A stretch of DNA of 64,000 nucleotides from Gammaproteobacteria bacterium (GTDB lineage Bacteria > Pseudomonadota > Gammaproteobacteria > GCA-001735895). Where the stretch lies: contig JASJBV010000001.1 in NCBI GenBank assembly GCA_030066335.1, positions 9,065 to 73,064 of the forward strand. Direction: 5' to 3'. Shown piece by piece: positions 2,807-55,421 of the stretch. The position numbers and the translations under genes are program-made. The notes under the pieces are model-generated. The model searched no databases, was not told the DNA's origin, and saw nothing but the letters and a program-made list of their open reading frames with translations. Numbering within the stretch: the first letter of the stretch is position 1; each line of letters begins with the position of its first letter.

Positions 2807-5666
2807 TTTCTTTGCTTAGCGCGGAACAGGCCATATGGTATGCGGATTCGAGGTCATCCAGCAACTTGTGTGCAGCCTCCAGGGTCTGCTCTCTGCCAAA
2901 TTGCTCCAGTTCCCTGCTCAGCTCGGAAACCCTCATCACGCCAAGGTTGGCACTGCTCGATTTAAGGCTGTGCGCCGCTTCCTCCAGCGCTTTGGCATCA
3001 CCGCTCTCGATCGATTGCCTGATCGCCTGCATCAGCATCGGTGAATCATTGAGGTAAATATCGATCACCTTTTTCAATAAATCCGGCGCGCCGGGCCGCT
3101 GCATCGCGCGGATTTTTTCCAGCGAGTCCTGCTGCAAAGGATTTACCGCATCAGCTTCTGTAACCGCAGCAGACGGTTGCTGATCAGCATCTACTTGTTG
3201 CGAAGCGACCGGGGCGCCCAGCCACTTGGTCAGGACTGCCCACAATTGCTGCTGATCGAATGGTTTGCTCATATAATCATCCATGCCCGCGGCACTGCAC
3301 TCCTGCTGAATGCCTTTTTGCACATTGGCGGTCAGGGCGATGATCGGCATATGCCGCTGCTGCGGCGCATCCGCCGAGCTGTGGTATCTTCTGATTTCGC
3401 TGGTGGCCTGGAAGCCATCCATGACCGGCATCTGGCAATCCATCAGTACCAGGTCGAAATCTTCGCGCAGCGTCGCTTCCACCGCCTGTTCACCATTATC
3501 AACCACGGTAACCCGACAGCCGAGGATTTCCAGCATACTCAAGGCGACCTCCTGGTTCACCGGGTTATCCTCGGCTAACAGAACATGCGCATGCAGTGGC
3601 GAGTCAGCGGCATGGGCAAGCCTGGGTTCGGTGATATCCTCAGTCGGTTCGGGGATGTTGATGACGTTGGTCAGGCAGTCGTAGAGAGCTCTTTGGCGGA
3701 CCGGTTTATTCACATAGTAATGAATTCCGGCGGCCTTGGCGCGCTGGGTCTCTTCATCGAATGCAGCTGAACTCAGCATCACCATGCGCTTGGGTGAGAT
3801 CTCCGGGTCATTTTGAATTTGCTCAGCCAGTTCTATGCCATCCATGTTTGGCATGTGCCAGTCGAGGATGATCAGTTCATAGGGATCTCCCTTGCGCTCC
3901 GCTGCGCGAATGATCTCCAGGGCCTTGTCGCCGCTGTCAGCAATGCCATCGATCATGCCCCAGGCATTACATTGATTATGCAAAATTTCCCGGTTGGTTG
4001 GGTTGTCATCCACGATCAATACGCGCACAGCATCGAGCTCACGGGTAAATTCGGTGATTGCATCGACCGGTTCCGCTACCGGTAAATCCAGAGTGAAATG
4101 GAAGTTGGAACCCTTGCCCAGCTCACTCTCTACCTCCAGTTTCCCGCCCAGGGCAGCAACCAGCTGGTGCGAGATGGCGAGACCGAGACCGGTGCCACCG
4201 AATTTGCGCGTGGTTGAACTATCCGCCTGGGAGAAAGATTCAAAGATGCCATTCTGCTGTTCCCGGGTCATACCGATGCCGGTGTCTTCAACCTCAAAGT
4301 GCAGGGTCAGGGTTTCTGCGGATTCCTGCAGCTTGCTCAGGCGCATGACAATTTCACCAACCTCGGTGAACTTGATGGCATTGCCAATCAGGTTGATCAG
4401 AATCTGGCGGATACGGTTTTCATCGCTGCTGACCATCATCACCGGATCCAGCGGCAATACCGGGGTTAGGTCGAGGCCCTTGTTGTGCGCGCGTTCAGCG
4501 AGAAATTCAGCGGTATCCTCGAGCGTGATACGCAGATCAAAATCGCGCTGCTCAAGCTCCAGTTTGCCGGCTTCGATCTTGGAAAAATCCAGGATGTCGT
4601 TAATGATCGCCATCAAGGTATCACCGGAACGCAGAATGGTCTGGGCAAAATGCTTTTGCCGTCCACTCAGCTCACTGGCCAGCAACAATTCGGCCATCCC
4701 CAGCACGCCATTCATCGGGGTGCGGATTTCATGACTCATGGTCGCCAGGAATTCACTCTTGGCGCGACTGGCCGCCTCGGCTGCTTCTTTCGCATCCTTC
4801 AGGTTACGGGTGCGCTCCTCGACGGTTTGCTCGAGGCTGTTACTGTATTCAATCAGTTGTTCGCGATTTTGCGACAACTTACTGTGCATGCTGCTGAAGC
4901 TCTTGGCCAAGTCGCCCAGTTCATCATTACGCGCAATGTCGATTTTGACACTATCATCGCCTTCACCGATTCGACGCGCAAATTCGGTCAGGCGGGTAAT
5001 CGGCCGGGACAGGCTGTTGGATACCCAGACCGCCAGTAACAGGGCCAGGATGAATAGTCCCAGGGTAATCAGCAACAACACGTAAAGGCTCTGGTTTTCA
5101 CCCCGCTGCTTGATTTGCAGCAGACGTTCATTGACCTCGGCGATATCCTCCATCACTCCGCTTAACGAGAAACCGAGGCGGATGCGGCCTATCTGGGTGT
5201 CTTCGCTGATCATCAGCGGCATCGAGTAATCGATGAAATAATTGGTCTCCTGGATCAGAAACTTATCGGATTTCCCGGCCCTTATCGCAACCGGGTCTTC
5301 AAGCCGCTGACCGAATGTCGGAATTTCATCTATGCCGTCATGAACGACCTTTTCCTCGTTATCCAGCACATAGAAATAAATCACGTCCTCCTGGTTCAGC
5401 GCGGTCTGGGAAATTTCAAATATCGCCTGGATGTCGTAGTCGTATACCGGGTTGATCAGGTTTTCGGCAAGCAGGCGGGTCATGGTCTCGCCACGCTGAT
5501 GCAGTTTACTCATCAGGCGCTGCTTCATTTCCTGTGCCGTGACCTCTGACATATCCTCGCCATGGCGCTGAAAATTGATCAGCAGTGCACCCGCCAACAA
5601 CGCGATGTTGAAAAACACCAGCGCCACGATGGCGAATGCATATTTATTTCTGAGTGGAAATCTCAC
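2784..5666 (-). CDS. hybrid sensor histidine kinase (TM-periplasmic domain-HAMP-HisKA-HATPase-REC-REC-Hpt)
   Basis: H-box [12 protein letters not shown]-box GTGLGLAI, two DxxxD/K receiver regions ([13 protein letters not shown]..., [13 protein letters not shown]...), C-terminal Hpt ([11 protein letters not shown]); ATGA overlap with upstream SBP gene. Confidence 0.9.
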
Positions 5667-13811: not shown

Positions 13812-16226
13812 CTACTGCATTGCTATCTGCAGAGAGATCGTTTGCGGTGGTAAACACAGCCGGTCATTGCAGGCCTGCAACTGCAGACTCAATGGCAGAA
13901 TTCGTGTCGCCTGGTTGCGTTGATCGATTATTATACGGAACTGAAGATCATCTTCGAACAGGGACATCGGCTCGTCCTGAAATCCAAGTACCCGGGTTTG
14001 ACCAGCTGGATAGTTGACATCCTGTATTATCCAGTCCCGGTTTGTACTATCTAATGTTAACCGGGTAGGAATGAGATTATCCTGCAGTGGTTGATCGGAA
14101 TTGATATGCCAACCATCGGCAATGAACAGATCAACAACGACTCTGTCGTAACCCGCCTGTCTGGCCTGTATACGAATGCCACCGAGGGCTGCGTATTGCA
14201 GAGGGCCTGTCTCTCCTGTTCGTGCATCACTGGCGCTGGCGAGCATGTAAGCGAAATCATCCGGACTTTGATTAACAACACCAGCAAAAGCAGCCAGTGT
14301 CGCTGTGGCCCTTTTTCCATAATCCCGATCACCGGTCCGTTCCTGTAGCATGTGTAACACCCTAACGGCCATGGAATTACCTGAGGGCATACGGTCATAG
14401 TCGGCAGCATCGCGATATCGACCCATCGCGGTGACCTGCTCACGCTGACTACTCATATAAAACCCACCGCGTTGACTGTCCCAGTAATGCTGCAGCATGC
14501 TGTCTGCGAGTTGCCCGGCCCGCTCCAACCAGCTCATATCAGCGGTTGCATCGTATAACCGCAACAGGCCCTCGGCATAGTAGGCATAGTCCTCCTGCCG
14601 GGCTTCAATCGAGGCACGTCCGTCAAGATTGATCCGCCACAGCTGTCCTGGTTTGCGCCACTGCTGCTGCCAGATAACTTTAGCCGCACGCACGGCCGCA
14701 TCGGTGTAACGCGGTTCATCGAGCAGCATCCCGGCCTCGGCCAGGGTACTGATCATCATGCCATTCCAGGCGGTAATGATTTTTTCATCACGCAGAGGAT
14801 GCACTCTTTGTTCCCGCGCCCGGTAGAGCTGTTGCAGGATGGGATCCAGGCGCTTGTTGAGCTCGGACAATGACGTGCCCTGCCGCTCGGCGAACTCGGG
14901 CAGCGACAATGGCAGAAACAGGATATTGAGGTCTCCATCATAACCCTCCTCGCGGATGTCAAACAGCTTGATCACCAGCTCAGCATCCTCTGCTGACAGG
15001 CTGGTGCGGATCTCGGCAGGACGCCAGAAGAAGAACTTACCTTCTTCCCCCTCGCTATCGGCATCGGTCGCGGAATAAAAGGCGCCCTGCTCCGAGGTCA
15101 TGTCACGCAGGGCATAGTCGAGGGTCTGAACGGCAACCCGCCGAAACAGCGGATTGCCGGTCAGATACCAGCCTCGCAGGTAAATCCGCGCCAGGTGCGC
15201 CTGGTTGTAGAGCATTTTTTCGAAGTGCGGGGTATGCCAGTAGCTATCGACGGAATAACGATGAAAACCACCACCTACATGGTCATAGATACCGCCCCTG
15301 CTCATCGCATCCAATGTATGATCGAGCAGCTTGAGGATGGCCGGGTCGGGATCACGCATGGCCTGGTTGAGCAGCAGGAATAATCTGGGCTCGTTGGGAA
15401 ACTTGGGCCTGCCGCCGAAGCCGCCGTTTTCCGTGTCATAGTCAGCGAGCATATTGCTGATCGCCTGGTCCAATGCAAGATCGCTAATGCTGGCGGCAGT
15501 TGTTTGCGATTGATTGATCTGTCCGACCCCGACGGCGATTCGCTCCGCCTCGGCCAACAGCATCGTTTGTTGTTCGGTCCATTGCCGGGCAATCTGCTGC
15601 AGCAGTTCGAGAAACTGCGCCGGTCGATAATAGTTACCACTGAAGAAAGGTTTTCCGTCCGGGGTTAGAAAACTCGAAATGGGCCAGCCACCATCGCCGG
15701 TCACGAAGATCAGTGCATTGAGATAGACCCGGTCAATATCGGGCCGACGCTCGCGATCCACCTTGATCGCGATAAAATTGCGATTGATAAAATCAGCCAC
15801 GGCGCCATGCTCGAAGCTTTGTTTCTCCATCACGTGACACCAGTGACAGGTGGAATAACCAATCGACAGTAACAGCGGCTTGTTTTCCGCCCTGGCCCTG
15901 GCAAAAGCCGCCTCACCCCAGGCGTGCCAGTCCACCGGGTTGTGCGCATGCTGGATCAGGTAGGGGGAATCCTCGAGGATCAGGCGATTGGTATATAGCG
16001 GCTTGCCATCCTGGGCCAGATGTTCGGTTCGTGGCACATAGTCTGGTGGTTTGGCATCCAGCGCCTGGCGAACTCGCCTGTCCAGTTTGGCCGGCCGCGC
16101 GGGTATGTAAGCCGCAACATCCCGTGTTTGCGGCAGCATATCATTGTCATTGGTCGCTGCCGATAGCTGACCAGGCAAAAGCAAAGCCAGTGGGATACAA
16201 ACCAGCGCTGTTTTCAGTCTTTTCAT
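13812..16226 (-). CDS. secreted thioredoxin-domain protein of the DUF255/YyaL family with C-terminal extension
   Basis: Signal peptide; [19 protein letters not shown] thioredoxin-like CxxC block followed by (alpha/alpha)6-like region. Confidence 0.8.
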
Positions 16227-16415: not shown

Positions 16416-17348
16416 ATGATTCGTGCCTACTCACAACGCATGCTGCCACCCTTTTCCGGTTTCGTGCAGATTGCCGAAACCGAGCGTGCCCGCGCCCAGA
16501 GTTTTGACGGCGTGAGCTGGGAAATCCAGTATTATGCCGGAACCGACCAGGCGAACCGTGAACATAAACGTCCTCAGGGGTACGCCGTCGATAAAGGTTA
16601 TTTCAAGATAGCCCATCTGCATAATCAACAGCTAAAGCCCTACGTATTGCCATCCTGTCTTGACGCCACCGAGGTGGCCGAATGTATCACCGAGTTATCA
16701 GATTATCTCGCTACCGCGCAACTGCCCTTTCCTGCCGCTGATATCTATGAGTACTGGTTGTTGGATGGCGCGGATGGCTCACCACTGGCCTTGATTTTTT
16801 CCTGCTGCGAGGAATCGCAAAAGTTGACCTATCCTGTGCATACCGAGTGGACGGCGCTACCGCATTCGAAGATCAAGATTGACAACACTGCCGGCGAGCA
16901 GGCACGCAATGAACCACCGGTCAATCATCGTTTCCAGCACCTGGTAGCCAGGCGCGCTGGCAACAAGCCCAGGGCAGCCTGGTTCAAGCGGGATGACAAA
17001 GACGCGAACACTTTCCCCTGTTTTATGGTGCGGGAAGACTGGCAGCAGGAAGCGGATAATGATTTGTGTCAACGTTACCTGCTGCGCAATGCGCCGCGCC
17101 TGCTGATGCTGCAGGGCCTCAATCGCGACGACCGTGAGCGACTGGAGATCGCGGCCAAGGACTATGCGATCGAGGTCGATGACTATTTCCCGATGTATCC
17201 GGAGATCATCGACCAGCGGCGAATGGCGGCTATCCGGGTGGAAGCGAGATTACGTAAAGCATCACCACATCAACATAAAGTTAAATCCAGTAAAACTTCT
17301 AAAGATAAGGCTCCATTGAGCAAGGACATGCGTATCATCGAAAACTAG
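16416..17348 (+). CDS. hypothetical protein (310 aa), no recognisable domain
   Basis: Long ORF with coding-like composition; no motifs recognised. Confidence 0.5.
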   Translation: MIRAYSQRMLPPFSGFVQIAETERARAQSFDGVSWEIQYYAGTDQANREHKRPQGYAVDKGYFKIAHLHNQQLKPYVLPSCLDATEVAECITELSDYLATAQLPFPAADIYEYWLLDGADGSPLALIFSCCEESQKLTYPVHTEWTALPHSKIKIDNTAGEQARNEPPVNHRFQHLVARRAGNKPRAAWFKRDDKDANTFPCFMVREDWQQEADNDLCQRYLLRNAPRLLMLQGLNRDDRERLEIAAKDYAIEVDDYFPMYPEIIDQRRMAAIRVEARLRKASPHQHKVKSSKTSKDKAPLSKDMRIIEN

Positions 17349-17981
17349 GATTGGAATGGATGTCGACATGCGCCGGGATGACGTATTTTCCTGATTCAGT
17401 TCAGCACTCTGCAGTGAACATCCATTGTCATTAGCATCTATCCCGCTAACTATTTTTTCTATCTAGCAACACTGCCATGCTAAAAAAATCCGTGCTTGGA
17501 ATGACGGATAATTAAATTTTCTTTTTATATGTTCGGCTAATTTTTTGCTGATCATTGTCTCGCCGAGTACCTGGTCAGGGTCTCGCTTCCCCGCCGCAAG
17601 AATGAACCTGAAAAGAGATTGAGCAGAAAGCCTTAGTCACTGATTTTTCGATTATTTTTTCGGTATCTCGGTTTACATCGCATAATTAATTTACTCGCCA
17701 TTGAACCAGAACAAAATCTGCGGTGACTGCAATAAATTCGGTACCGCGTGAACCAGGTTTGTCCACAACAAAAAATAATTTGCTGAACTTTCTTCCGGGC
17801 CCGGGGTCAGTTCGGATTAAGGAGGGATGCTGTGATTAACCAAATCAGATAATTGCATTACAACTGGTTCATTTACCGCAACCTGAAAAAGTTCTGTCCT
17901 TTAATCTGACCGATTTCCGGACTTTGCATTCGACGTCACAAGAGCGTCATTATCGTTAATCATACTGAGGATATACACATC

Positions 17982-18269
17982 ATGAAAACGCAAATCGCAC
18001 TCGCCGCTACCCTTACCGCCATGGTCCTGGCCGCCCCCATGCATGCTTCTGCAGCTGCCAAGGAGAAATGCTATGGCGTGTCACTCGCTGGACAAAACGA
18101 TTGTGCCGCCGGTCCGGGCACTACCTGCGCTGGTTCATCCACCGTCGATTACCAGGGCAATGCCTGGACCCTGGTACCGAAAGGAACCTGCGAGTCCACC
18201 GTCATCAGTGCATCTGATGGAATGGACCGCAAGGGTAGCCTGGTCGCCCTGAGCCGCGACCTGCCCTAG
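17982..18269 (+). CDS. bufA: DUF2282 bufferin-type RiPP precursor (Sec signal peptide + Cys-containing core)
   Basis: [24 protein letters not shown] signal; core [25 protein letters not shown]...GTCES with 4 Cys in the DUF2282 pattern; RBS GAGGA upstream. Confidence 0.8.
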
Positions 18270-18299
18270 TCAGGGTTTGAACAGGCGGCGTCACTGATA

Positions 18300-19250
18300 G
18301 TGGCGCCGGCCTGGTTAGCGAGAAAAAGCATGCTATCCCGAGCTCAAGCAGCTGATGATAGTCAGAGCGGTGCAGATGATTTCGAGGCAGCCGATATCCC
18401 GGCTGACATACCCGCTGTCGCCGGTACCAGCTTCAAACCGGAACACGCAGCAGACATAGAGCGCGATCCCGGTGAGGTTGCCTGGTTCGAAGTCCACCCC
18501 GAGAATTACATGGTAGCCGGCGGCCCAAGACTGGCCCAGCTGGAAGCACTGCGGGCTGACTTTCCGATATCCCTGCATGGTGTCGGTATGTCGCTTGGCA
18601 CCGGCGAACTGCCGGATGCGCAACACCTGCAAGCCTTGCGTGAGCTGGTCAATCGTTTCCAGCCCGGCCTGGTTTCCGAACACCTGGCCTGGTCGTCGCA
18701 CGACGGCCTGTACCTGGCCGACCTGCTGCCCAGCGCATTGACCCGGTCTATGCTTGACGGCGTGGTCAATGCAATCGACAAGACCCAGCAAACCCTGGGC
18801 CGGCAAATCCTGATTGAGAACCCAAGCTCCTACATCCCGCGGCCGGACAGCTGGCTGCCGGAAATCCAGTTTCTCAACGAGCTCGCCCAGCGTAGCGGCT
18901 GCGGCCTGCTGGTCGATGTCAACAATGTCTTTGTCAGCGCCCATAACCTGAAATTCAATGCCAATGATTACATCGACGCGGTCCCCGGCGAGGCTGTCGG
19001 TGAGATCCACCTGGCCGGTCACAGTGTCGACAACAACGACGGCGACCCCATTTTAATCGATAGCCATGGTGCCACGGTCAGCGACGAGGTGTGGGCACTC
19101 TATCAGCGCTTAATCAGCCGGATCGGCCCCCGGCCCACCCTGGTTGAATGGGACAACGATTTGCCCGCCTGGTCAGAGTTACGCGCTGAAGCCCAGCGCG
19201 CCAATCAGCATATTGATCAGGTCATCCAGGTCCAGCGAGAAGCGTCATGA
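18300..19250 (+). CDS. bufB: DUF692 multinuclear non-heme iron oxidase (MNIO, MbnB-like)
   Basis: …WFEVHPENYM…LHGVGMSLG…LVSEHLAWS…LIENPSSY…IHLAGHS motifs of DUF692; start uncertain (GTG 18300 or ATG 18330). Confidence 0.85.
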   Translation: MAPAWLARKSMLSRAQAADDSQSGADDFEAADIPADIPAVAGTSFKPEHAADIERDPGEVAWFEVHPENYMVAGGPRLAQLEALRADFPISLHGVGMSLGTGELPDAQHLQALRELVNRFQPGLVSEHLAWSSHDGLYLADLLPSALTRSMLDGVVNAIDKTQQTLGRQILIENPSSYIPRPDSWLPEIQFLNELAQRSGCGLLVDVNNVFVSAHNLKFNANDYIDAVPGEAVGEIHLAGHSVDNNDGDPILIDSHGATVSDEVWALYQRLISRIGPRPTLVEWDNDLPAWSELRAEAQRANQHIDQVIQVQREAS

Positions 19251-20020
19251 GCGCGCGACCTGAACTCGCCTATCGCCAGCAATTCACCCAGGCACTACTG
19301 GCCCGGGCAGCCGATGCCCATCCAGCCAATCTCGCTCCGCATGAGGCACGTCGATTCCGGGTTTATCGCAACAATGTGCATACTGCACTGATCACCGCGC
19401 TGGCCGATGCTTACCCGGTAATTCAACGACTCGTTGGAGAAGAATTTTTCGCCGCGATGGCGCGTGAGTTTTTCCTGCTGGAACATGAACGGGAATCGAC
19501 TCTGGCACTTTATGGTGCAGATTTTGCCGATTTCATCGAACAATTTACCCCGGCTGCTTCACTACCCTATCTGGCCGATGTCGCACGCCTGGAACGCACC
19601 AGGCTCGAGGCACTGCATGCGGCTGACGCCGCTGTAATCGATGCATCCGCATTGCCCACTGATGGCGAACAGCTGCTGAACATGACCTTTGAGCCACACC
19701 CGGCCTTACGCCTGCTGAGTTCAGCTCATCCGGTCGTCAGTATCTGGCTGGCCAACCAGGCTGATGAACCACAGAACATCATCACCGCCAGCGCCGAATT
19801 TGCATTGATTACCCGGCCTAGGTTCGTGGTGAACACGCTGCTGCTGGACCAGGCTACCGGTCGATTTACTCGGCAGCTGATGCAGGGGCATACGCTGCAA
19901 CAGGCCTATACCAATACATCCAGCATCGCCGGCGAATTCGATATAGGCGTGGCTTTTTCCCAGTTACTCGAAGCCGGCGCCTTTACCGATGCCGCCACAT
20001 ACCAGGAGGATACAAAATGA
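19247..20020 (+). CDS. bufC: DUF2063 protein, partner subunit of the MNIO
   Basis: N-terminal FRVYRNNV motif typical of DUF2063; ATGA overlap with bufB stop. Confidence 0.8.
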   Translation: MSARPELAYRQQFTQALLARAADAHPANLAPHEARRFRVYRNNVHTALITALADAYPVIQRLVGEEFFAAMAREFFLLEHERESTLALYGADFADFIEQFTPAASLPYLADVARLERTRLEALHAADAAVIDASALPTDGEQLLNMTFEPHPALRLLSSAHPVVSIWLANQADEPQNIITASAEFALITRPRFVVNTLLLDQATGRFTRQLMQGHTLQQAYTNTSSIAGEFDIGVAFSQLLEAGAFTDAATYQEDTK

Positions 20021-20604
20021 TAAGCGCAGAATTTTCCAACGAACAGGAACGATCGCTGATTGTTAAGACCCGGAACAGCTACGATCGATTGGTGGCGGCC
20101 ATGCAACGCGGACTTGACGGCTGGTTTATCGAACTCGGTGCACGGCTGCTGTTTGCCGCCACCTTGATGGTTTACTACCTCAACAGTGCAATGACCAAGG
20201 TCGGTGACGGCCTGTTTGGCATCTTCGCGCCCTCCGCGGGTGCGTTCGCGCAGATCGCCCCTCCGGTGGCAGAACATTATTTCTATGATACGACCGCGAT
20301 CCCCTTCTTCCCCTGGCACCTGATCGTCATTGCCGGCACCATCGCCGAGATTGTGCTGCCGATCCTGATCGTCATCGGCCTGTTCACCCGCCTGGCCGCG
20401 CTCGGCATGATCGGCTTTGTCGTGGTGCAGACCATCGTCGATATCGCCTTCCACGGCTCCACCCTGGGTAGCTGGTTCAACAACCAGGCCGGCGAGTTAG
20501 TGGACCAGCGTTTGCTGTGGATTTTCCCATTGCTGTTACTGGTGGTGAAAGGCGCAGGTTCGATTTCCATCGATACCCTGTTACAGCGATTGAGGAAATC
20601 CTGA
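20017..20604 (+). CDS. bufD: DoxX-family membrane protein
   Basis: Four predicted TM segments with DoxX-like pattern; ATGA overlap with bufC stop. Confidence 0.7.
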   Translation: MISAEFSNEQERSLIVKTRNSYDRLVAAMQRGLDGWFIELGARLLFAATLMVYYLNSAMTKVGDGLFGIFAPSAGAFAQIAPPVAEHYFYDTTAIPFFPWHLIVIAGTIAEIVLPILIVIGLFTRLAALGMIGFVVVQTIVDIAFHGSTLGSWFNNQAGELVDQRLLWIFPLLLLVVKGAGSISIDTLLQRLRKS

Positions 20605-29602: not shown

Positions 29603-32600
29603 TTACGGGCGCTGCAGCTCGGCTTTCGCTTGCGCTGGGTGGCGTGACTCAAGCCACTGCAACACGGCGACGGTTAAGGCGGGGAGAAAGGTCAGGGTCA
29701 CCAGCGCGGTGCCGATGATACCGGCCATGACGATGACGCCGACACCGCGATACAGCTCGGTACCCTCGCCCGGGATGAACACCAGCGGCGCGAGACCGAA
29801 CACCGTGGTCAGGGTCGACATCGCGATCGGGCGCAGGCGGGTATCGATCGCGTTGCGTACCGCCTCGACCGCCGACATCCCCTGTTCACGCAGGTTCAGC
29901 ATTGCCTGGTGGACGATCAGGATCGGGTTGTTGACGACGGTACCCATCAGGATCAGAAAACCGAGCATCGTAATCATATCGAAGGACTGGTGAATGGCCT
30001 GCAGTCCAACCGCGGGCAATAACAGGCTGCCGACCAGGTTCAACAAGGCCAGGCCGATAATGCCCGACGCGATACCGAGCGGGATCGTGGTCATGATCAA
30101 TACCGGGTAGCCCCAGTGGGAAAAAATCGCGACCAGCAACAGGTAGATGATCACCAGCGCGACCAGGTAGTTGGCGCCTAACGATTCCTTGGTCGACTGC
30201 AGCTGGTCACTGGCGCCGGAGGTGACGATCTTGACCGCCGCCGGCAACTGGCCATTGTCCTGCATGTAACCGATCACATCCTGCTTGACGATCTCCACCG
30301 CGGTCTCCAGCGCGACCGCGTCGGGCGGGATAATGTTCAGGGTCACGGTGCGGCTGCCATCGACCCGGCGAATATTGCTGGTATCGACGGTTTCGACCAC
30401 GCTGGCCAGTGACGACAACGGCACCACGGTGCCGCCCGGGGTATACACCGGCAGCTTGTCGAGTCGATCCAGGCTGGCCTTGCGGTCAGTGTTGCTGTAG
30501 AGGTAGATATCGATCTTGTCATCGGCAAAGAAAAATTCGTCGACGAAGGCACCATCGGTCAGGGCGGCGATGGTGAACCCCATCTCATCATGAGTCATGC
30601 CGGTCTCGGCCAGGCGTTCCCAGTCCGGCCGCACCTCGACCAGCGGTTGCGACAGGTTCAGTGACGACGGATTCGAGCGTACCCGCGGCCGCTGCATGAC
30701 CTCCTTGGCCCGGTTTTCGGCATCCAGCGCCACCTGGTAGATGGTCTGCAGGTCGGGGCCGGAGATATCCAGGTTGACGCTGCGGGTACCGCCACTGTTG
30801 CTGGAGATAATCGAGCCGCGGGATACGAACGAGCGCATGCCGACATAATCGCCGAACTTGGCGCGTACCGCATCCATCAGCGGTTTGATATGGCTGGGAT
30901 CCTTCGGCTGCGAGATGATAAAGATCGTGGTGGCACGGATGCTCATGTTCATATACAGCATCGCCGGTACCTCGGTTTCACCGCGCGCAAACTGTTCCGG
31001 ATCATGCTCGAGATAGGGCAGAAAATGCTCCTGCAGGTCCATGCCGATGCGGGTCATGGTTTCCAGGTTGTAGCCGGTGGGTGAACTCATGCGCGCAAAC
31101 AGTTTCGGCTCCTCGCCCTCGGGCAGGTATTCGGCCGCGGGCGTCAGCCAGATGATGATCGCGGTGCAGATACCCCCGACCAGGGCGATGACACTGAAGC
31201 GGCGTAGCGAGGTCGCCACCAGCCAGTTGATCACAGCAACCGTGGCCCGGCGCATGCGGCCGGTTTCACGGGCGACGGCGCTGGCCGGTTGGGCAAACAC
31301 GAAGCGCCCAGCTGCCGCCGGCACCGCGGCAATCGCAATCGCCATCGACGCCAGGATCGAGGCCGAGATCGCAATCGCGACATCGCTGTAGAGCTGGCCC
31401 GCCTCTTCCGCGATGAACACGATCGGTACGAACACCATGACCGTGGTCAGGGTCGACGCGAGCACCGCCGGCCATACCCTGCGTACACCCTCGACCGCGG
31501 CACGCCAGCGATCAAGGCCCTTGCGCCAGGCTTGCTCGATACTCTCCAGCACGACGATGCTGTTATCCAGGGTCATGCCGATGGCAAAAGCCACGCCGGC
31601 GAGGGAAATCACGTTGATCGTCCGCCCGCTGGCATACAGACCGATGAAGGCCGCGATCGTACACACCGGAATCCCCATGATCCCGACCAGGGTGGCGCGG
31701 CCGGAACGCAGGAACAGGTACATGACCAGGCTGGCCAGCAGCGCGCCGATCAGCAGGTTGGTCCAGACGTTGAAAATCGACGCCTGCACATAGCCGACGT
31801 CATCGGCGACCAGGCGCAGCGCCATCCCCGCCGGCTGCAGAATTTCCGCGTTGACCGCGTCAACCTCCAGCATCATCTGGCGTTTGATATCGATGACATT
31901 GGAGCCCGGGTTGCGCCTTACCGACATGCCGATCGCCGGTTGGCCATTGGCGAAGGAATGGCGCACGATCTCGAAATGGCCGATACGGATATCCGCCAGT
32001 TCACCCAGCCGCACCAGTGCATCACCATCGCGCGTGATGATCAGGTCATTGAGTTCGTCGACATCGCTGAAGCGACCGATCGTGCGCAACAGGTAACGGC
32101 GCTTGCCGGATTCGATCTCGCCGCCGGAAACATCGATGTTGCGCTCACGAATCGCCTGGCGCACGCTGGCCACGGTCAGGTTACGCTCGGCCAGGCGGCG
32201 CGGGTCGAGCACAATCTGCACCTGGCGGTCGGCACCGCCATAAACCGAAACCTCGGACACCCCGGGAATCGCCTCCAGCCTGGATGCCACGTTGTCGCGG
32301 ATATAGTCCTGCATCGGGGTGATATCGATATTGCGCGGATTGCCCGGCAGCGGCATTATCCGGAAGTACATGAAGGCGTTGGCCGAAAACGAACTGGCGA
32401 TGATGCGCGGCTGATCGACGTTATTGGGATAGGAACTGACCCGGCTGAGCGCGTTCATGACCTCGATCAGGGTCTTGTTGAGATCGATACCGAACGGAAA
32501 TTCGAGTTCGATCCGGGCGCGGCCGAATTCGGCGGATGACTCGATGCGTTGCAGCCCACGCACGCTGCGCAGCTGTTCCTCCTGCTCGATCAGGATCTCC

Positions 32601-32776
32601 TTCTCGACATCCTGTGGGGTGGCGCCAGGCCAGGCGGTACGGACCCCAATCGTGCGTACCTCCAGGTCCGGGATCATCTGCACCGGAATATTGAACGCCG
32701 CGACCAGGCCCAGCACGACGATGATCAGCGTTGCCACGCCGACCAGGATGCCGTGTTTGACCAGGTTATCGAACAT
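29603..32776 (-). CDS. RND efflux transporter permease (AcrB/HAE1-like, 12 TM)
   Basis: 1057 aa; characteristic TM/periplasmic loop architecture. Confidence 0.9.
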   Translation of the reverse strand: MFDNLVKHGILVGVATLIIVVLGLVAAFNIPVQMIPDLEVRTIGVRTAWPGATPQDVEKEILIEQEEQLRSVRGLQRIESSAEFGRARIELEFPFGIDLNKTLIEVMNALSRVSSYPNNVDQPRIIASSFSANAFMYFRIMPLPGNPRNIDITPMQDYIRDNVASRLEAIPGVSEVSVYGGADRQVQIVLDPRRLAERNLTVASVRQAIRERNIDVSGGEIESGKRRYLLRTIGRFSDVDELNDLIITRDGDALVRLGELADIRIGHFEIVRHSFANGQPAIGMSVRRNPGSNVIDIKRQMMLEVDAVNAEILQPAGMALRLVADDVGYVQASIFNVWTNLLIGALLASLVMYLFLRSGRATLVGIMGIPVCTIAAFIGLYASGRTINVISLAGVAFAIGMTLDNSIVVLESIEQAWRKGLDRWRAAVEGVRRVWPAVLASTLTTVMVFVPIVFIAEEAGQLYSDVAIAISASILASMAIAIAAVPAAAGRFVFAQPASAVARETGRMRRATVAVINWLVATSLRRFSVIALVGGICTAIIIWLTPAAEYLPEGEEPKLFARMSSPTGYNLETMTRIGMDLQEHFLPYLEHDPEQFARGETEVPAMLYMNMSIRATTIFIISQPKDPSHIKPLMDAVRAKFGDYVGMRSFVSRGSIISSNSGGTRSVNLDISGPDLQTIYQVALDAENRAKEVMQRPRVRSNPSSLNLSQPLVEVRPDWERLAETGMTHDEMGFTIAALTDGAFVDEFFFADDKIDIYLYSNTDRKASLDRLDKLPVYTPGGTVVPLSSLASVVETVDTSNIRRVDGSRTVTLNIIPPDAVALETAVEIVKQDVIGYMQDNGQLPAAVKIVTSGASDQLQSTKESLGANYLVALVIIYLLLVAIFSHWGYPVLIMTTIPLGIASGIIGLALLNLVGSLLLPAVGLQAIHQSFDMITMLGFLILMGTVVNNPILIVHQAMLNLREQGMSAVEAVRNAIDTRLRPIAMSTLTTVFGLAPLVFIPGEGTELYRGVGVIVMAGIIGTALVTLTFLPALTVAVLQWLESRHPAQAKAELQRP

Positions 32777-32791
32777 TCACCGCTCTCGCTG

Positions 32792-33898
32792 TTAGTCGTT
32801 GGTTGGTCTGACGCTCACCTTCTGGCCTTCGCGCAGTGACTCGTTGCCTCTGACAACGACCAGCTCACCCGCGGCCAGGCCGGACGTGATATTGATGCGA
32901 CCGTTGAAACTCAAACCGGTCTGCACCTGTTTCTCGGTCACCTCGGCCTGCTCATCGTTTTGCTCGACCGCCCACACCGTAATGCGGCCATCGGGATAGC
33001 GGATCAACGCATTGCGGTCGACCACGACGCCGTCATCACTGCTGCTGATATGCAGGGTGGCACTGGCCGAGATACCGGGGATCAGGCTGACCCCGGTATC
33101 GTCGAGGAGGGTCCGCAGCGGAAAGGTCCGCGAGCCACGGTCGGTGACCGGCACCACGCTGATGATGTTGGCGCTGAAGGTTTCGCCAGGCAGGGTACCG
33201 AAGCTGACCTCGATCCGGCTGATCGCGCCGAGCCGCTGGTAGACGCGCTGCGGCACCTGGAATTCAATCTCTGGCGCGGTCATTGATACCAGCTCCACCA
33301 CCGCATGACCGGGAGCCACCCATTCCCCGCGTTCCGCGTTGCGCGCACTGATGACACCGGCGAAGGGCGCGCGCAGGGTGTGCTGACGCAGGCGTAACTG
33401 TTGTTGCTGCTCCTCGGCCTGCAGGCGGGTCACCTCGGCCGCATCGATCGACACCTCGGCTTTCAGCGAGTTGATTTCATTGGCCGATACCGTGTTGGTT
33501 CGACCGAGCCGTTCGGCATCGGCCAGCCGGCGCCGGGCGTCCGCCAGTTCACGCCGGACCTGTTCGGCTTCGGCCCGTTTGGCCTGTAGCGACAACTGCT
33601 CCAGGTCGGATTTAAGGGTCAGGATCACATCGCCCTCGCTGATCCGGTCACCAATGTCGACGTCGATGTTATCGATCAGGCCGCTGATCTCGGTCGACAG
33701 GCGGGCCTGGCGCGAGGAGATGACGGTGCCGGTCAACGGCACTTCCTCGACCACCTCGGCCTGCTGCACCCGTTCGGTGATAACCGCAGTAGCCTTGTCC
33801 TGGGCGAACAGGGGATTTGCGATTAACAGCATCAACAAGGCCTGGCCCGGCGATAGCCGGTTTGTCAAACGGGGATAATCGGGTTGCCTGGTTGTCAT
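32792..33898 (-). CDS. efflux periplasmic adaptor (membrane fusion protein, HlyD family)
   Basis: Coiled-coil rich (AEQVRRELADARRRLADAERL) plus beta-barrel region. Confidence 0.85.
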   Translation of the reverse strand: MTTRQPDYPRLTNRLSPGQALLMLLIANPLFAQDKATAVITERVQQAEVVEEVPLTGTVISSRQARLSTEISGLIDNIDVDIGDRISEGDVILTLKSDLEQLSLQAKRAEAEQVRRELADARRRLADAERLGRTNTVSANEINSLKAEVSIDAAEVTRLQAEEQQQQLRLRQHTLRAPFAGVISARNAERGEWVAPGHAVVELVSMTAPEIEFQVPQRVYQRLGAISRIEVSFGTLPGETFSANIISVVPVTDRGSRTFPLRTLLDDTGVSLIPGISASATLHISSSDDGVVVDRNALIRYPDGRITVWAVEQNDEQAEVTEKQVQTGLSFNGRINITSGLAAGELVVVRGNESLREGQKVSVRPTND

Positions 33899-33954
33899 CG
33901 GATCATCTTAAACCACGGTCAGTCGTTGGAGAAGCTTTTAACGGGGACACTGCC

Positions 33955-36471
33955 CTAGCCCGCGTTGCGTAACAGGATCGCCGGGCGCACGCGCAAACGC
34001 CTGAGCAGGTAATGGGTGCCCAGGCCGAGCGAGGCAATGCTGACCACGACCGCGGTCAGGGCACCCACCCAGACCAGGTCAGTGGACGGCAGCTTCATGC
34101 GTATTTCCAGCAGCGGCAACGCAATCGCCGAACCCAGCAGCACTGCGAATATTGCGGTGACCAGGGCCAGCAGCAGGTACTCGAGCTGCAGGCTTTGCCG
34201 AATCACCGACAGCCTCGCGCCCAGGGTATTCAACACGGTGGCCGCATAGACCTGGCGCGAACGACCGGCCGCGATCACGCTGATCAGCACCAGCAGACTG
34301 GCCGCCAGGCTGATCGCGGCGACGACCACCAGGCCCAGGGTGGCCTGGCCAAGCAGGTCTCCGGCAGTGGCGAGAATACGCGCGGTGCGCACCGTGATCA
34401 CGTTGGGTGCCACCGCTGCAATCTGGCGCTGCGCGTCGATGGCCTGGGCATCGTCCAGCCAGGCGGCACCGACGTGGCGGTTAATGAATGGATCGAGCAG
34501 CCCATCGCTGACGATGACCTCGAACCAGAACCGGGTTTGCACGCCCTTCTGTTTATGGATGGTTGCGACCTGCATATCGATCGTTTGTCCGCCGACCCGA
34601 TAACTGATGCGATCACCGGCCGTGATGCCCAGCCGGCGTGCCTCCCGGTCTTCCAGCGACATTTTCGGTAAGGTCTCACTCTGCTCCCACCAGCTACCCT
34701 CGACCAGGCTGATTCCATCGATATTGCCGGCGCGGTAACTCAACTTGTGGTCGTCATTCAGCGCATCGCGCAGTTCATGATCGCCAGCGGCCAGCAATTC
34801 ACTGACCGGCCGGCCGTTGATCGCGTCGATCCGGGCGCGCACCAGCGGCGCGGTTTCTACCCGTGCGCCTTCCGCGGCGCTCTGCACTGCGTCGATCACA
34901 TCGCTGACCTGGTTGACGTTGATATCGTACAGCACCATGCCCGGCGACTCGGCCGGGATCGTGGCTTGCAGGGTGCGCATCAGCGACACCACGACCAGGG
35001 TACAGGCGACCAGCAGGGTCAACGCCGAACCCAGCGACAGTAGGGCGCTGCGCAACGGGGTACCCGGCCGGTGCAGGTTGGCCAGGGCCAGGCGCAGGGC
35101 GAAGCGGCCCTCGAGGCGCTGGTTGTGCTGCAGCGCGATGGCGCCACGCCGGATCAGGCGCAGGATGATCTCCAGCAGGACCAGGACCAGGCCGACCACC
35201 AGGATAAAACCGACGCCAAACAGTGGGTCCGGCAGCGTCAACAACACCAGCAGGACAATCAATCCACCGTTGATCGCGGTCGCCAGGCGCCAGGCCGGCG
35301 GGGTATGCCCGGCATCCTGGTCGGCATCGCGAAACAGGGTAGCCGGCGATACTGCCAGCGCCCGGCCGACGGCCGGCAGGGCAAAACAGAAGGCGGTCAG
35401 CAGGCCGAAGGCGAAGGCCGCGACTAATGGCGCCAGCACCGCACCCAGGGTGGTCGCCAGCGCCAGCTCCGCGGCCACCATGGTCGCACCGACGAGTGCG
35501 AGCAAGGCACCGATCAGACAGCCGACCAGGCTGGAACCACCGCCGAGGATACCGACCTGTAATAGGTAAACACTGGCCAGGCGTCGATTGCGAAGACCGA
35601 GCGAACGCAGGGTGGCGATAGTCTTGAGTTTGCCCTGCAGGTAGGACTGGATACTGCTGAAAACGCCGAGACCGCCGATGAACAGGGTGCTGAAACCGAT
35701 GATCAACAGGCCGGACGCAATCTGGCCGAGGCGCTCGGCGATCCGCTGGCTGCGGTCCTCGAAGGTGCGCACCTCCCAGGTTTCATCGGGGAAGCGCTCA
35801 TAGAACATGTCTTTCCAGCGCGCCGCGGGGATATCGGTAGCGACGCGGTAATCATAATCGACCCTCGATCCGGGATGGATCAGATCGGCCTCGCGAATGG
35901 CCTGCATCGAGATCAACACCGGCGGACCGCGCCAGTCCGCGGTCAGGGCGCGGTCCGGCTGATCCATGATCAGGGCCCGCACCTGCATGATCAGGGCTCC
36001 GATGTATATTTCCTGACCCACATCAAGCCCGTAACGCAGGGCCAATGACTGGTCGATCGCGACGCCCCAGTGCTCGCCGTCAAATGCAGTGAGGTCAGAC
36101 AGTTTTGCCGCCGGTTGCAGTTGCAACTCGCCATACAGTGGATAGAGCTCATCCACGCTCTGCAGTTCGACCCGGACAAAATCGCCCTCGGCGGTGCCCA
36201 GCATGGTATAGAGTTCGGTCATCAGCGACACCGTGCCATGCTCACCCATCCAGGCGAGGGCTTCTGCGGGCAACGGCTGTTTCGAATCGACGTCGAGGTC
36301 GCCGCCCATCAACTGGCGGGTATCCGCCAGCAGACCGGTGCTGACCAGGCGATAGAGACCACCGCTGGCAGCGACCAGGGTGACCCCGAGCACGATACAG
36401 GCACAGAACACCCATAGCGAGCGACCGCTCGCGCGCAGGTCGTGCCAGGCCAGCTTAAGCAGAAAGCGCAT
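33955..36471 (-). CDS. FtsX-domain ABC transporter permease (YbbP-like, two FtsX repeats)
   Basis: ~838 aa; start taken at [15 protein letters not shown]. Confidence 0.8.
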   Translation of the reverse strand: MRFLLKLAWHDLRASGRSLWVFCACIVLGVTLVAASGGLYRLVSTGLLADTRQLMGGDLDVDSKQPLPAEALAWMGEHGTVSLMTELYTMLGTAEGDFVRVELQSVDELYPLYGELQLQPAAKLSDLTAFDGEHWGVAIDQSLALRYGLDVGQEIYIGALIMQVRALIMDQPDRALTADWRGPPVLISMQAIREADLIHPGSRVDYDYRVATDIPAARWKDMFYERFPDETWEVRTFEDRSQRIAERLGQIASGLLIIGFSTLFIGGLGVFSSIQSYLQGKLKTIATLRSLGLRNRRLASVYLLQVGILGGGSSLVGCLIGALLALVGATMVAAELALATTLGAVLAPLVAAFAFGLLTAFCFALPAVGRALAVSPATLFRDADQDAGHTPPAWRLATAINGGLIVLLVLLTLPDPLFGVGFILVVGLVLVLLEIILRLIRRGAIALQHNQRLEGRFALRLALANLHRPGTPLRSALLSLGSALTLLVACTLVVVSLMRTLQATIPAESPGMVLYDINVNQVSDVIDAVQSAAEGARVETAPLVRARIDAINGRPVSELLAAGDHELRDALNDDHKLSYRAGNIDGISLVEGSWWEQSETLPKMSLEDREARRLGITAGDRISYRVGGQTIDMQVATIHKQKGVQTRFWFEVIVSDGLLDPFINRHVGAAWLDDAQAIDAQRQIAAVAPNVITVRTARILATAGDLLGQATLGLVVVAAISLAASLLVLISVIAAGRSRQVYAATVLNTLGARLSVIRQSLQLEYLLLALVTAIFAVLLGSAIALPLLEIRMKLPSTDLVWVGALTAVVVSIASLGLGTHYLLRRLRVRPAILLRNAG

Positions 36472-37186
36472 GGTCGCGGTCTTCAATAAGTTTGCCGTCG
36501 CGCAGGCGTAGCACGCGCCGGCAGCGGGCGGCGATCGCCTCGTCATGGGTGACCATGATCATCGACGAACCGGTCTCCTGATTCAGGCCGAACAACAGCT
36601 CGATGACCCGGGCGCCGGTATTGGCATCCAGATTGCCGGTGGGCTCATCAGCCAGCAACAGTCGCGGCCGGTGCACCAGGGCGCGGGCAATCGCAACCCG
36701 CTGCTGTTCGCCACCGGACAACTGCGATGGATAATGGCTGGTGCGTTCGCCCAGGCCGACCCGCTCGAGCATGGTCAGGGCGGTCTCGCGTGGGTTGTCG
36801 CGACCGGCGATCTCGAGTGGCAGCATGACGTTGCCGAGCGCGGTCAGGCTGGGCACCAGGTGAAACGACTGGAATACGATACCGAGTCGATCACGCCGCA
36901 GGTCGGCCAGGGCCTCGGCGTCGAGATGATCGAGGTCGGCATCCTCGAACAGAATTCTGCCGCCATTGGCCTGTTCCAGCCCAGCGAGCAGTAACAACAA
37001 GGTGGTCTTGCCGGAGCCCGAAGGCCCCAGGATGGCGACGGTCTCACCCGCTTCCAGACTCAGATCAACGCCGCGCAAGACGTCGAGCTGACCCTCGGCG
37101 AGCGCATAGGACAGGCTCAACTGTTGAATATCGATCAGCGGGGCGGACGTTATTGATTCTGCAGCAAGTTCGGCACTTGGATTCAT
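36455..37186 (-). CDS. ABC transporter ATP-binding protein (YbbA/LolD-like)
   Basis: [35 protein letters not shown]. Confidence 0.85.
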
Positions 37187-37358
37187 CGTTGGCTCCTGGT
37201 TTCGGCAGGCAGGACATTAATATTAAGCCCTAATCTCCTATTAATGGTTCCATCCTGCAAAATAACAATGCTAAACCGATATCTGTCACCGAATAGTCAC
37301 CGACAATAACACTGTGCGATCCGCAGATAAGAGGGTATGGTTGCGGCAGGAATCCGCT

Positions 37359-38231
37359 ATGCAAACTTCACTTATTTTTCCACTGATCTTCGTCGTGCTC
37401 TGGTCATCCGCGTTTGCGACCGGCTCGATGGTGACCGACGATGCGACACCTTTTGCCGCACTCGCCTTTAGATTCTGCCTGGTGACCCTCGGCTTTCTGG
37501 TGGTGGCCGCTATCTTGCGCGAATTCTCCAGATTTTCTCGCCATGCCCTGGGCCACGGGATGGTGACCGGGGTGTTGTTCCATGGCCTATACCTGGGTGG
37601 CTGCTGGTATTCATTCAGTGTCGGCATCCCGGCCGGCGTATCGGCGTTGATCGTCTGCATCCAACCCATTCTGACCGCGATTTTTGCCGGTTTTTTACTG
37701 GGTGAACACATCTCCGGCAAGAACTGGGTTGGTCTGGCCCTGGGCTTTGTCGGTGCCATCCTGGTCCTCGGGGTGGATTTCGGCTCCGAATATGCAGTGG
37801 ATGGGCTGATCGCCAATGTGATCGCGCTGGCGGCGATCACCACCGGTACCATCTGGCAGAAAAAATATTCTTCGACCCAGCCACTGGCAACCAACAACGC
37901 GGTGCAGGCAGCCTCGGCCGCCGTTTTTCACGCTGCCGTGATGTGGTGGTTCGAGGAGCCGTCAATCAACTTCACGTTGAATTTCACCCTGGCGATGGGC
38001 TGGCAGATTTTTGCCGTGAGCTTCGGCGCGTTTTCGGTGTTGATGTACCTGATCAATAAAAATTCGGCGAGCCAGACCTCTGCGCTGTTTTTCCTGGTGC
38101 CGCCGGTGGCCGCCCTGATGGGATTCATGCTGCTGGATGAGCGCCTGACCACGATCGACATGTTCGGTTTTGCGGTGGCAAGTTTCGGCGTCTACCTGGC
38201 CACCCGCAAGTCCAGCAAACTCGCAGGATGA
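37359..38231 (+). CDS. EamA/DMT-family transporter
   Basis: 10-TM pattern with two EamA repeats. Confidence 0.75.
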   Translation: MQTSLIFPLIFVVLWSSAFATGSMVTDDATPFAALAFRFCLVTLGFLVVAAILREFSRFSRHALGHGMVTGVLFHGLYLGGCWYSFSVGIPAGVSALIVCIQPILTAIFAGFLLGEHISGKNWVGLALGFVGAILVLGVDFGSEYAVDGLIANVIALAAITTGTIWQKKYSSTQPLATNNAVQAASAAVFHAAVMWWFEEPSINFTLNFTLAMGWQIFAVSFGAFSVLMYLINKNSASQTSALFFLVPPVAALMGFMLLDERLTTIDMFGFAVASFGVYLATRKSSKLAG

Positions 38232-38434
38232 AGTTAATGGCATTATTGGAACGGGACAGCGCATGGAATTGGTGCGATAAAGCAGCTGTTGAGTTGGTCC
38301 CGGGATCGGCATAGTATATCGAGAGACCCAATATCAACGAATAACAACAAGCGCTGCAGCAGTTGATTACTACCCAGCCGGGTGATCAGGCAAGCGTGGA
38401 TTCACGATTATCCATCCCAAAGGAGGCGTGGGGT

Positions 38435-39193: not shown

Positions 39194-39197
39194 CCCA

Positions 39198-39466: not shown

Positions 39467-39485
39467 CCGGGACGGGAGAATCGAC

Positions 39486-55396: not shown

Positions 55397-55421
55397 TTTT
55401 TATCTCCTGTGAATTGAACCG

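Follow-up and report, generated by a model that had tools for sequence, protein, structure and literature searches.

In the Caulobacter vibrioides bufferin Buf1, cysteines II and III bear -4 Da thiooxazoles and cysteines I and IV are joined in a disulfide bond; installing the modification requires both BufB and BufC and nothing beyond this pair, and DoxX can be left out in the model system (PMC11626156). The core of this bufferin is 68 amino acids long, and members of the family have 80-120 residues (PMC11626156). The Caulobacter operon, CC3254-57, encodes the same four domains as the locus described here and depends on sigma-F, a sigma factor of the ECF type (PMC3511200). More than 20,000 such clusters have been counted in the literature (PMC13097082), and metal specificity across the bufferin family is not yet settled there (PMC12452194, PMC13097082).

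We examined a 64-kb stretch of DNA from an uncultured gammaproteobacterium (hereafter, the window) and found four co-directional genes, bufA-bufB-bufC-bufD, on the + strand at 17982-20604, all of them with intact ORFs. The best explanation, in which we place high confidence, is that this cassette is an orthologue of the Caulobacter buf1ABCD operon. It very probably represents an intact four-gene set for a bufferin-1-type periplasmic copper-binding peptide, with the chemistry and the copper role assigned by homology. The family is already named and characterized and is very common, and the cassette is an ordinary further example of it, not a novel system.

Gene content and conservation of the cassette

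The first gene, bufA (17982-18269, + strand), begins with an ATG that lies 8 nt downstream of a Shine-Dalgarno-like GAGGA (17969-17973) and encodes a 95-aa peptide. This peptide scored 87.5 bits against the DUF2282 profile (PF10048; cut-off 22.4), and its homologues carry the NCBI name "BufA1 family periplasmic bufferin-type metallophore". An old Pfam name for the DUF2282 protein is "predicted integral membrane protein". The four cysteines of BufA (Cys30, Cys41, Cys49 and Cys70; 6, 17, 25 and 46 in the core) are spaced 11/8/21 and lie in the motifs KCYGV, NDCAAG, TTCAG and GTCES. Both the cysteines and the C-terminal tail are invariant in 22 aligned sequences. The tail, DG..R.GSL..L.RDLP, is kept in 21/21 of the aligned homologues and falls outside the Pfam model.

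By rule-based inspection, residues 1-24 (17982-18053, + strand) form a predicted Sec signal peptide, in which Lys2 is followed by hydrophobic residues from 3 to 19 (9-mer hydropathy up to 1.99) and the predicted cleavage point comes right after Ala22-Ser23-Ala24. The original prediction had placed an AXA-type cleavage after HASA, and this is consistent with the signal-peptide ends of 22 homologues, in which position -1 is always Ala and position -3 is Ala or Val. The core that remains after the predicted cleavage (18054-18266, + strand) is 71 aa long, with predicted neutral monoisotopic masses of 7135.373 Da unmodified and 7125.295 Da mature. A core of about 70 aa had been noted as long for a RiPP, along with Gly/Ala/Ser-rich spacing around the cysteines; both features are the norm for this family. 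An AF2 model of BufA, built from the 22-sequence alignment, reached a pLDDT of only 57, and values in the Cys loop were lower than 50. This model was set aside on that account and does not confirm the small-protein fold. We also note that the public record for BufA is an 82-aa protein, apparently called from an internal Met 13 codons late, so that the signal peptide is largely missing; for annotation, the full 95 aa are preferable.

The second gene, bufB, encodes the MNIO enzyme. Its longest ORF starts at GTG 18300 (316 aa), whereas an alignment with six orthologues favors the in-frame ATG at 18330. The latter is most likely the true start and would give a 306-aa product (18330-19250, + strand) and a gap of 60 nt between bufA and bufB. 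BufB scored 322.8 bits against PF05114 (MNIO; cut-off 25) and 357.1 bits against NF050167 (NCBIfam MNIO_BufB; equivalog cut-off 310), and contains WFEVHPENY at residue 62, SEHLAWS at 126 and IHLAGH at 236. The iron ligands had been singled out in advance as a place where the bufferin reading might fail; in BufB, all nine MbnB-type ligands have counterparts. In 316-aa numbering these are H93, H128, E173, D206, N209, H237, D254, H256 and E283, which align in that order to the MbnB ligands His54, His90, Glu133, Asp163, Asn166, His192, Asp208, His210 and Glu239 (PMC9060507). H93 was mapped via 3BWW and E283 via alignments to 7DZ9 and 3BWW; the others were mapped directly on 7TCR.

The third gene, bufC (19247-20020, + strand), encodes a 257-aa protein of the DUF2063 / RRE-like MNIO partner kind (PME type 1), which contains FRVYRNNV and scored 75.3 bits against PF09836 (cut-off 27.2). 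Its AF2 model was of high quality (pLDDT 94, pTM 0.89). A Foldseek search of the PDB with this model returned TglI (8HI7_A and 8HCI_A) and NGO1945 (3DEE), each with a probability of 1.00, and beyond the TglI chains and 3DEE yielded no match with E<0.001. The relationship to 3DEE was missed by phmmer and by a 20-sequence profile and emerged from the fold comparison. The model supports a TglI/NGO1945 fold for BufC, of the MNIO partner type. The last gene, bufD (20017-20604, + strand), encodes a 195-aa DoxX-family membrane protein with hydrophobic segments, which scored 31.4 bits against PF07681 (cut-off 23.6). A DoxX gene is common at this end of the operon in bufferin-1 clusters, although they do not require one.

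The original prediction of four co-directional ORFs with ATGA start/stop overlaps was accurate in its coordinates, the overlaps lying at 19247-19250 (B/C) and 20017-20020 (C/D). Its DUF2282, DUF692, DUF2063 and DoxX calls all scored above the curated cut-offs, and the sequence motifs that it quoted for BufA, BufB and BufC are those given above. Its reading of the locus as a bufferin-type cassette is upheld, in that every feature of buf1ABCD that can be tested in sequence was found here. Each of the four genes shows purifying selection, with dN/dS values of 0.05-0.16 and synonymous sites near saturation; the value for bufD is 0.14, and that for bufA, compared with the relative L006, is 0.046.

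The operon is also conserved as a unit. Our homologue search gave at least 8000 candidates, and relatives are present in at least 559 species genomes. Of 91 related loci, 79 keep the A-B-C-D order collinear, bufD following bufC, between flanks that are unrelated. In about 10 relatives the gene immediately upstream of bufA encodes a YHS (metal-binding) domain, in keeping with a role of the family in metal handling; this recurrent gene is a possible accessory component and may be of interest to bufferin workers. Three neighbors in the window were considered as parts of the cassette and rejected: a 310-aa ORF at 16416-17348, which is shared with the closest relative (L006) only and has no Pfam or NCBIfam match; an 804-aa DsbH-like flanking protein, which is absent from the relatives' loci; and the downstream ABC transporter, which is convergent. 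A second buf copy was sought within the 64-kb window and none was found. The weight of the cassette lies mainly in its correct annotation, as one more uncultured-gammaproteobacterial example of a family of tens of thousands.

The upstream region and a candidate promoter

Upstream of bufA lies a region of 633 nt (17349-17981). The Caulobacter sigma-F motif GTAACC-N16-CGAA, sought on its + strand with up to 2 mismatches, gave no match there, and neither a sigma-70 promoter nor intrinsic terminators were found around the operon above shuffled expectation. The region does contain a promoter-like motif of the ECF-sigma type, GAACTTTC-N12-GGTCAG (17785-17810, + strand), 197 nt before the start codon of bufA, which can be read as -35 GAACTT, a 16-nt spacer and -10 TCAGT, or alternatively with GGTC as the -10. 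The motif matches once in the window, against 0.01 matches expected. It recurs with a non-conserved spacer 192-243 nt upstream of bufA in related loci (L004, L006, L007/L008 and L011), and was found nowhere else on either strand of 1.75 Mb of fetched loci. The motif is a candidate clade-specific promoter, through which the operon is probably driven by an ECF-type sigma factor whose gene lies at another place in the genome. It offers a way to trace that sigma factor, and the regulon it controls, in these marine bacteria.

No window ORF of at least 130 aa matched Sigma70_r2, Sigma70_r4 or NrsF, and no ECF sigma/anti-sigma pair was found among these ORFs. In the relatives L001-L003, an ECF sigma factor and an RskA-type anti-sigma factor follow bufD. 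Neighboring ECF sigma and NrsF-type genes occur in only some of the Buf1 clusters and are accessory, not defining.

If the transcript begins just past the motif, the presumed bufA leader (17811-17981, + strand) would be about 165 nt long. We considered a hairpin in it (17932-17948, GACGTC...GCGTC), which had looked recurrent in relatives, as a family-wide element and rejected it: in a positional enrichment test, 37 of 75 loci had such a hairpin, where the background rate was 0.435 per 31-nt window (p=0.19). We also rejected the leader as a remnant of the relatives' upstream YHS gene, having found no similarity and no coding remnant, and a search for Rfam families across the whole window returned none. 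Separately, a CATCGCC...GGCGA stem is specific to the bufA leaders of Rhodobacterales, which may reflect mere shared ancestry.

Proposed function and alternative readings

Taking the chemistry, export, disulfide, copper binding and regulation from the characterized homologue, we propose the following pathway. BufA would be made as a 95-aa precursor, on which a cytoplasmic BufB-BufC complex would act, with BufB as the multi-iron MNIO oxidase and BufC binding the peptide. Four-electron oxidations would then turn Cys41 and Cys49 (core Cys17 and Cys25) into 5-thiooxazoles. The Sec signal peptide (1-24) would direct the product to the periplasm and be cut after Ala24, and a Cys30-Cys70 disulfide would stabilize a small folded protein of 71 residues. 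The mature peptide would chelate excess Cu(I)/Cu(II) via its thiooxazoles and so buffer the periplasm against copper stress, with DoxX presumably serving as a conserved accessory membrane protein.

A refinement of this proposal, which we consider unlikely, is that the marine BufA1 clade, with members in gammaproteobacteria and Rhodobacterales, differs in function as a sub-type within bufferin 1. The clade is marked by a shortened N-terminus and the invariant C-terminal tail; the ECF-type motif, which is unlike that of sigma-F, belongs to the window's own sub-clade. The tail might then be recognized by BufC in the manner of a follower, or provide an additional contact to a metal or partner, and the inducer or the metal might be other than copper.

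It is quite unlikely that the same thiooxazole chemistry serves another target altogether, whether another thiophilic metal or, together with DoxX, a role in oxidative or sulfur stress. A search for copper-resistance genes (cop/cus/cue) within the 64-kb window found none, either near the cassette or farther off. The two RND pumps of the window do not supply a metal-efflux context, as they score best as the multidrug type and not as CusA/CzcA. The window does encode SoxA and SoxX, and the host carries Sox sulfur-oxidation genes; these lie 34 kb from the cassette, however, and are unlinked to it in relatives. The promoter motif, which differs from the sigma-F type, could also speak for this reading, as could the induction of the Caulobacter operon by chromate and cadmium (PMC3511200), and the literature leaves undecided both the metal specificity and what DoxX does (PMC12452194, PMC13097082). 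Against these points, the sole characterized bufferin of the DUF2282 kind has a KD of ~6x10^-15 M for Cu(II), binds Cu(I) more tightly and is copper-protective, and its reporters showed no induction by Fe, Zn or Mn (PMC11626156). BufA keeps the Cys spacing of that peptide and the residues that flank its thiooxazoles, and in relatives bufA is paired with the YHS metal-binding gene.

The product itself could be different, if the MNIO were to make oxazolone-thioamide pairs like those of methanobactin instead of 5-thiooxazoles. BufB is homologous to MbnB, with the same ligand set; the mass change would be equal, and related products were initially taken for oxazolone/thioamide (PMC11252979). We find this very improbable. 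NMR of Buf1 supports the 5-thiooxazole, a later revision of the oxazolin structure also arrived at 5-thiooxazole, and installation of this group is reported to be widespread among MNIO-PME1 clusters (PMC13097082). Moreover, BufB reaches 357 bits with the BufB model versus 53 with the MbnB model (cut-off 325), and its partner is of the DUF2063 type and not MbnC.

Finally, a cassette that is a decaying or silent relic, with an unmodified periplasmic Cys-rich protein as its peptide, is scarcely credible. In its favor, no regulator lies nearby, the long (633-nt) upstream region is without a sigma-70 promoter, and decayed copies do occur in relatives (in L005, a lone bufA and a bufB fragment lie between transposases). 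Against it, none of the four ORFs is broken and they are translationally coupled, the catalytic ligands are complete, purifying selection acts on every gene, and the promoter motif is conserved specifically in front of bufA.

Comparison with characterized systems

The bufferin-1 reading that we favor rests on a detailed likeness to C. vibrioides buf1ABCD (CCNA_03363-03366, equivalent to CC3254-CC3257). The DUF2282-MNIO-DUF2063-DoxX order is the same, both precursors have a Sec signal peptide, and the Cys spacing of 11/8/21 is identical (Cys12/23/31/52 in Buf1). Of 15 Buf1 residues named in PMC11626156, 9 are identical in BufA at a constant offset of 6, as compared with at most 1 at any other offset. 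The shared positions include Glu-x-Cys(I), Asp-Cys(II), Cys(III)-Ala and Trp-x-x-Val. The cores are large in both (71 aa in BufA, 68 aa in Buf1), and the leader is long, as in the Caulobacter operon. The differences are that the window cassette, in an uncultured gammaproteobacterium and not in Caulobacter vibrioides, has no adjacent sigF-nrsF pair and no GTAACC-N16-CGAA, with another ECF-like motif in its place. In addition, the BufA core is 6 residues shorter ahead of Cys I and about 9 longer beyond Cys IV, where the extra tail conserved within the marine clade is found, and Cys II is followed by Ala in BufA and by Lys in Buf1.

Bufferin 2 (BufA2, BUF_6/12Cys) is similar in its MNIO and DUF2063 proteins, its Sec-exported Cys-rich precursor, its thiooxazole and its copper role (PMC11626156). 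BufA, however, has 4 cysteines and not 6 or 12, and scored 21.8 bits against NF050166 (cut-off 60); the Buf2 clusters of Caulobacter also lack DoxX. The oxazolin/fontiphorin/gonophorin systems (HvfABC, "captophorins") share the MNIO with a type 1 PME, a frequent DoxX, the 5-thiooxazole and copper (PMC13097082), whereas BufA is without EGKCG repeats, and the cassette's proteins fall below the Hvf cut-offs (BufB on HvfB, 211 versus 360; BufC on HvfC, 51.9 versus 142; BufD on HvfX, 24.3 versus 80). For BufC and BufD such scores are expected, because the HvfC and HvfX models describe the sister oxazolin system. Unlike the HvfABC type, DUF2282 products are folded small proteins with ordered Cu binding.

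The methanobactin system MbnABC resembles the cassette in its MNIO, which is homologous and has identical iron ligands, and in a heterocycle that is derived from Cys and binds copper (PMC9060507). The cassette, in contrast, has neither a short MbnA-type precursor nor MbnC, and BufB scored 53.1 bits against TIGR04159 (MbnB; cut-off 325). The products also differ in kind: a bufferin is a periplasmic buffer with thiooxazole, and methanobactin is a secreted chalkophore with oxazolone-thioamide.

Gene layout and family assignment

The cassette, whose genes we refer to as bufA to bufD, occupies positions 17982-20604, and the observation made in the original prediction is confirmed: the four co-directional ORFs of the forward strand, the ATGA start/stop overlaps at both the B/C and C/D junctions, and every peptide motif that had been quoted were found in the sequence. 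The ORFs are bufA (95 aa, 17982-18269, with a GAGGA ribosome-binding site), and, as ORF readings, bufB (316 aa from GTG 18300, 18300-19250), bufC (257 aa, 19247-20020), and bufD (195 aa, 20017-20604). The sole correction needed is to the start of bufB: when six orthologues are aligned with it, the start falls on an in-frame ATG at 18330 (306 aa) and not on GTG 18300.

Profile matches bore out the assignments to DUF2282, DUF692, DUF2063, and DoxX. The precursor reached 87.5 bits on Pfam PF10048 (cut-off 22.4), the DUF2282 profile that newer Pfam releases call BufA1; BufB matched PF05114 (MbnB_TglH_ChrH) at 322.8 bits, BufC matched PF09836 (DUF2063) at 75.3 bits, and BufD matched the DoxX profile at 31.4 bits (cut-off 23.6). 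Among the NCBIfam models, BufB cleared the equivalog threshold for "MNIO family bufferin maturase" (357.1 vs 310) and fell short of those for HvfB, ApyH, MbnB, and ChrH. A bufferin 2 identity was rejected because the precursor scored just 21.8 bits on the NCBIfam BufA2 model, for which the cut-off is 60, and our analysis thus supports the interpretation of the cassette as bufferin 1.

The precursor and its predicted maturation proteins

The cysteines of BufA lie at residues 30, 41, 49, and 70, a spacing of 11/8/21 that is identical to that of Buf1, the characterised bufferin of Caulobacter vibrioides. PMC11626156 names 15 residues of Buf1, of which 9 are identical in BufA at one offset (6); any other offset matches at most one. 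The predicted signal peptide comprises Lys2, a hydrophobic stretch (residues 3-19), and Ala-Ser-Ala ahead of the cleavage site, in agreement with the AXA end that had been proposed; across 22 homologues position -1 is an invariant Ala and position -3 is Ala or Val. The predicted mature core would be 71 residues, as compared with 68 in Caulobacter. Its length had been thought unusual, yet it is a feature of the family, in which precursors run to 80-120 residues (PMC11626156). The C-terminal tail DG..R.GSL..L.RDLP is kept in all aligned gamma- and alphaproteobacterial homologues. An AF2 model of the precursor was set aside, as its quality was too poor for use. The public record of the identical protein (P0003, "MAG: Gammaproteobacteria bacterium") is 82 aa long and begins at Met14, dropping the first 13 codons (17982-18020), so that the signal peptide loses its n-region and the greater part of its hydrophobic core; the homologues support the 95-aa start over this recorded form.

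The DUF692 iron ligands, on whose presence the original prediction had been staked, are retained in BufB. MbnB binds iron through His54, His90, Glu133, Asp163, His192, and Glu239, with Asn166, Asp208, and His210 as third-iron ligands (PMC9060507). HMMER alignments to 7TCR, 7DZ9, and 3BWW, with residue indexing, identified counterparts of all nine (H93, H128, E173, D206, N209, H237, D254, H256, and E283 in 316-aa numbering), and BufB thus looks catalytically competent.

The Pfam match on BufC spans residues 9-97 only, and neither a single-sequence nor a 20-sequence profile search found a solved structure for it. An AlphaFold2 model built with 51 homologues (pLDDT 94, pTM 0.89) gave significant Foldseek matches in the PDB only to TglI (8HI7_A and 8HCI_A), the partner of the MNIO TglH, and to NGO1945 (3DEE), the reference DUF2063-RRE protein, whose folds it shares (probability 1.00 for each; the following match had E=0.08). 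By matching both proteins, the modelled BufC fits the definition of "PME type 1" (PMC12452194).

Conservation and genomic surroundings

Relatives of the precursor number at least 8000, since every one of the 8000 candidates scored had E<=0.001; they carry the name "BufA1 family periplasmic bufferin-type metallophore", and at least 559 stretches encode relatives in one-genome-per-species data. The collinear A-B-C-D order is kept in 79 of the 91 related loci that we fetched; the others are mostly interrupted by contig ends, a few (e.g. L072 and L083) apparently have no DoxX gene, and L005 is a decayed copy amid transposases. Flanks vary from locus to locus, which marks the cassette as the unit. 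Relative to L006, the nearest of these loci (92% BufA identity), dN/dS was 0.046, 0.080, 0.160, and 0.142 for A to D, with synonymous sites near saturation.

Two neighbours were rejected as cassette parts, since neither is conserved alongside it in relatives. A 310-aa ORF (16416-17348, forward strand), with no Pfam or NCBIfam match, lies beside the cassette in L006 only. The other, an 804-aa protein (13812-16226, reverse strand), has by inspection a hydrophobic, signal-peptide-like segment at its N-terminus. Its domains are a thioredoxin of the DUF255/DsbH type, a middle part with weak resemblance to GlcNAc-2-epimerase, and DsbD_N at the C-terminus. As a periplasmic redox fusion it looks unusual, and in relatives it is unlinked to buf genes. 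About 10 of the 91 loci encode a secreted protein of ~170 aa directly upstream of bufA (L005:5360-5881, L023, L069, L063, L022, L048, L065, and L021; in L009:202-601 and L010 the gene is fragmented between frames). The L005 copy weakly matches the metal-binding YHS domain. This gene, which may be an accessory of some bufferin-1 clusters, is absent from the window. L009 also carries another MNIO-DUF2063 pair (3330-5321, reverse strand), which comes with a separate small gene of 83 aa and stands tail-to-tail with bufABCD, giving two adjoining MNIO clusters.

Elsewhere in the window, ~30000-42000 has a G+C of 0.60-0.65 vs ~0.50-0.53 in its flanks. This stretch, possibly an acquired island of efflux genes, encodes two RND pumps of the multidrug type together with membrane-fusion proteins, an FtsX ABC permease resembling YbbP and the ATPase that goes with it, and an EamA transporter. 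The sulfur-oxidation cytochromes SoxX and SoxA (54701-56306, reverse strand) score above equivalog cut-offs, so the host is probably a thiosulfate or sulfur oxidiser.

Regulation and comparison with Caulobacter bufferin 1

The 633 nt upstream of bufA yielded no sigma-70-like promoter, Rfam element, or Caulobacter sigma-F motif. The region does contain GAACTTTC-N12-GGTCAG (17785-17810), the only copy in the window, where 0.01 would be expected. Four independent related loci (L004, L006, L007/8, and L011) have the motif too, 192-243 nt ahead of bufA and with a spacer that is not conserved, and it is absent elsewhere in the 1.75 Mb fetched; in this clade it is thus specific to bufA upstream regions. 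Read as GAACTT-N16-TCAGT, it resembles ECF/sigma-E-type promoters. This reading fits both the ECF control of the Caulobacter buf1 operon (PMC3511200) and the ECF sigma/anti-sigma pair found immediately after bufD in L001-L003. No sigma factor gene was found in the window, and the cognate regulator would therefore be encoded elsewhere in the genome; we infer a putative ECF-type promoter.

A small hairpin before the bufA start codon was rejected as a conserved element, being no commoner there than elsewhere, and family-wide enrichment of a stem-loop in this position was not significant. In Rhodobacterales, a CATCGCC-loop-GGCGA/GGTGA stem-loop lies ahead of bufA at about -55 to -25, with some G-U-compatible changes (L013, L015, L024, L027, L034, L037, L040, L050, L054, L055, L067, L068, and L076), and could still be a clade-specific element.

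In Caulobacter Buf1 (PMC11626156), the core carries a Cys12-Cys52 disulfide, and Cys23 and Cys31 are modified to 5-thiooxazoles (-4.03 Da). In that system the BufB1-BufC1 pair is both necessary and sufficient for the modification while DoxX is dispensable, export is directed by a Sec signal peptide, and the KD of the product for Cu(II) is ~6x10^-15 M, with greater affinity for Cu(I). Carrying this mechanism over to the homologous cassette, BufB and BufC would convert the two central cysteines of BufA into 5-thiooxazoles in the cytoplasm, and the product would leave by Sec export, have its outer cysteines joined by a disulfide, and chelate copper in the periplasm. The choice of metal and the part played by DoxX are the least certain points of this model. 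Because the family is characterised and publicly named, with more than 20,000 known clusters (PMC13097082), we regard the cassette as a further member of a known family and of low interest.
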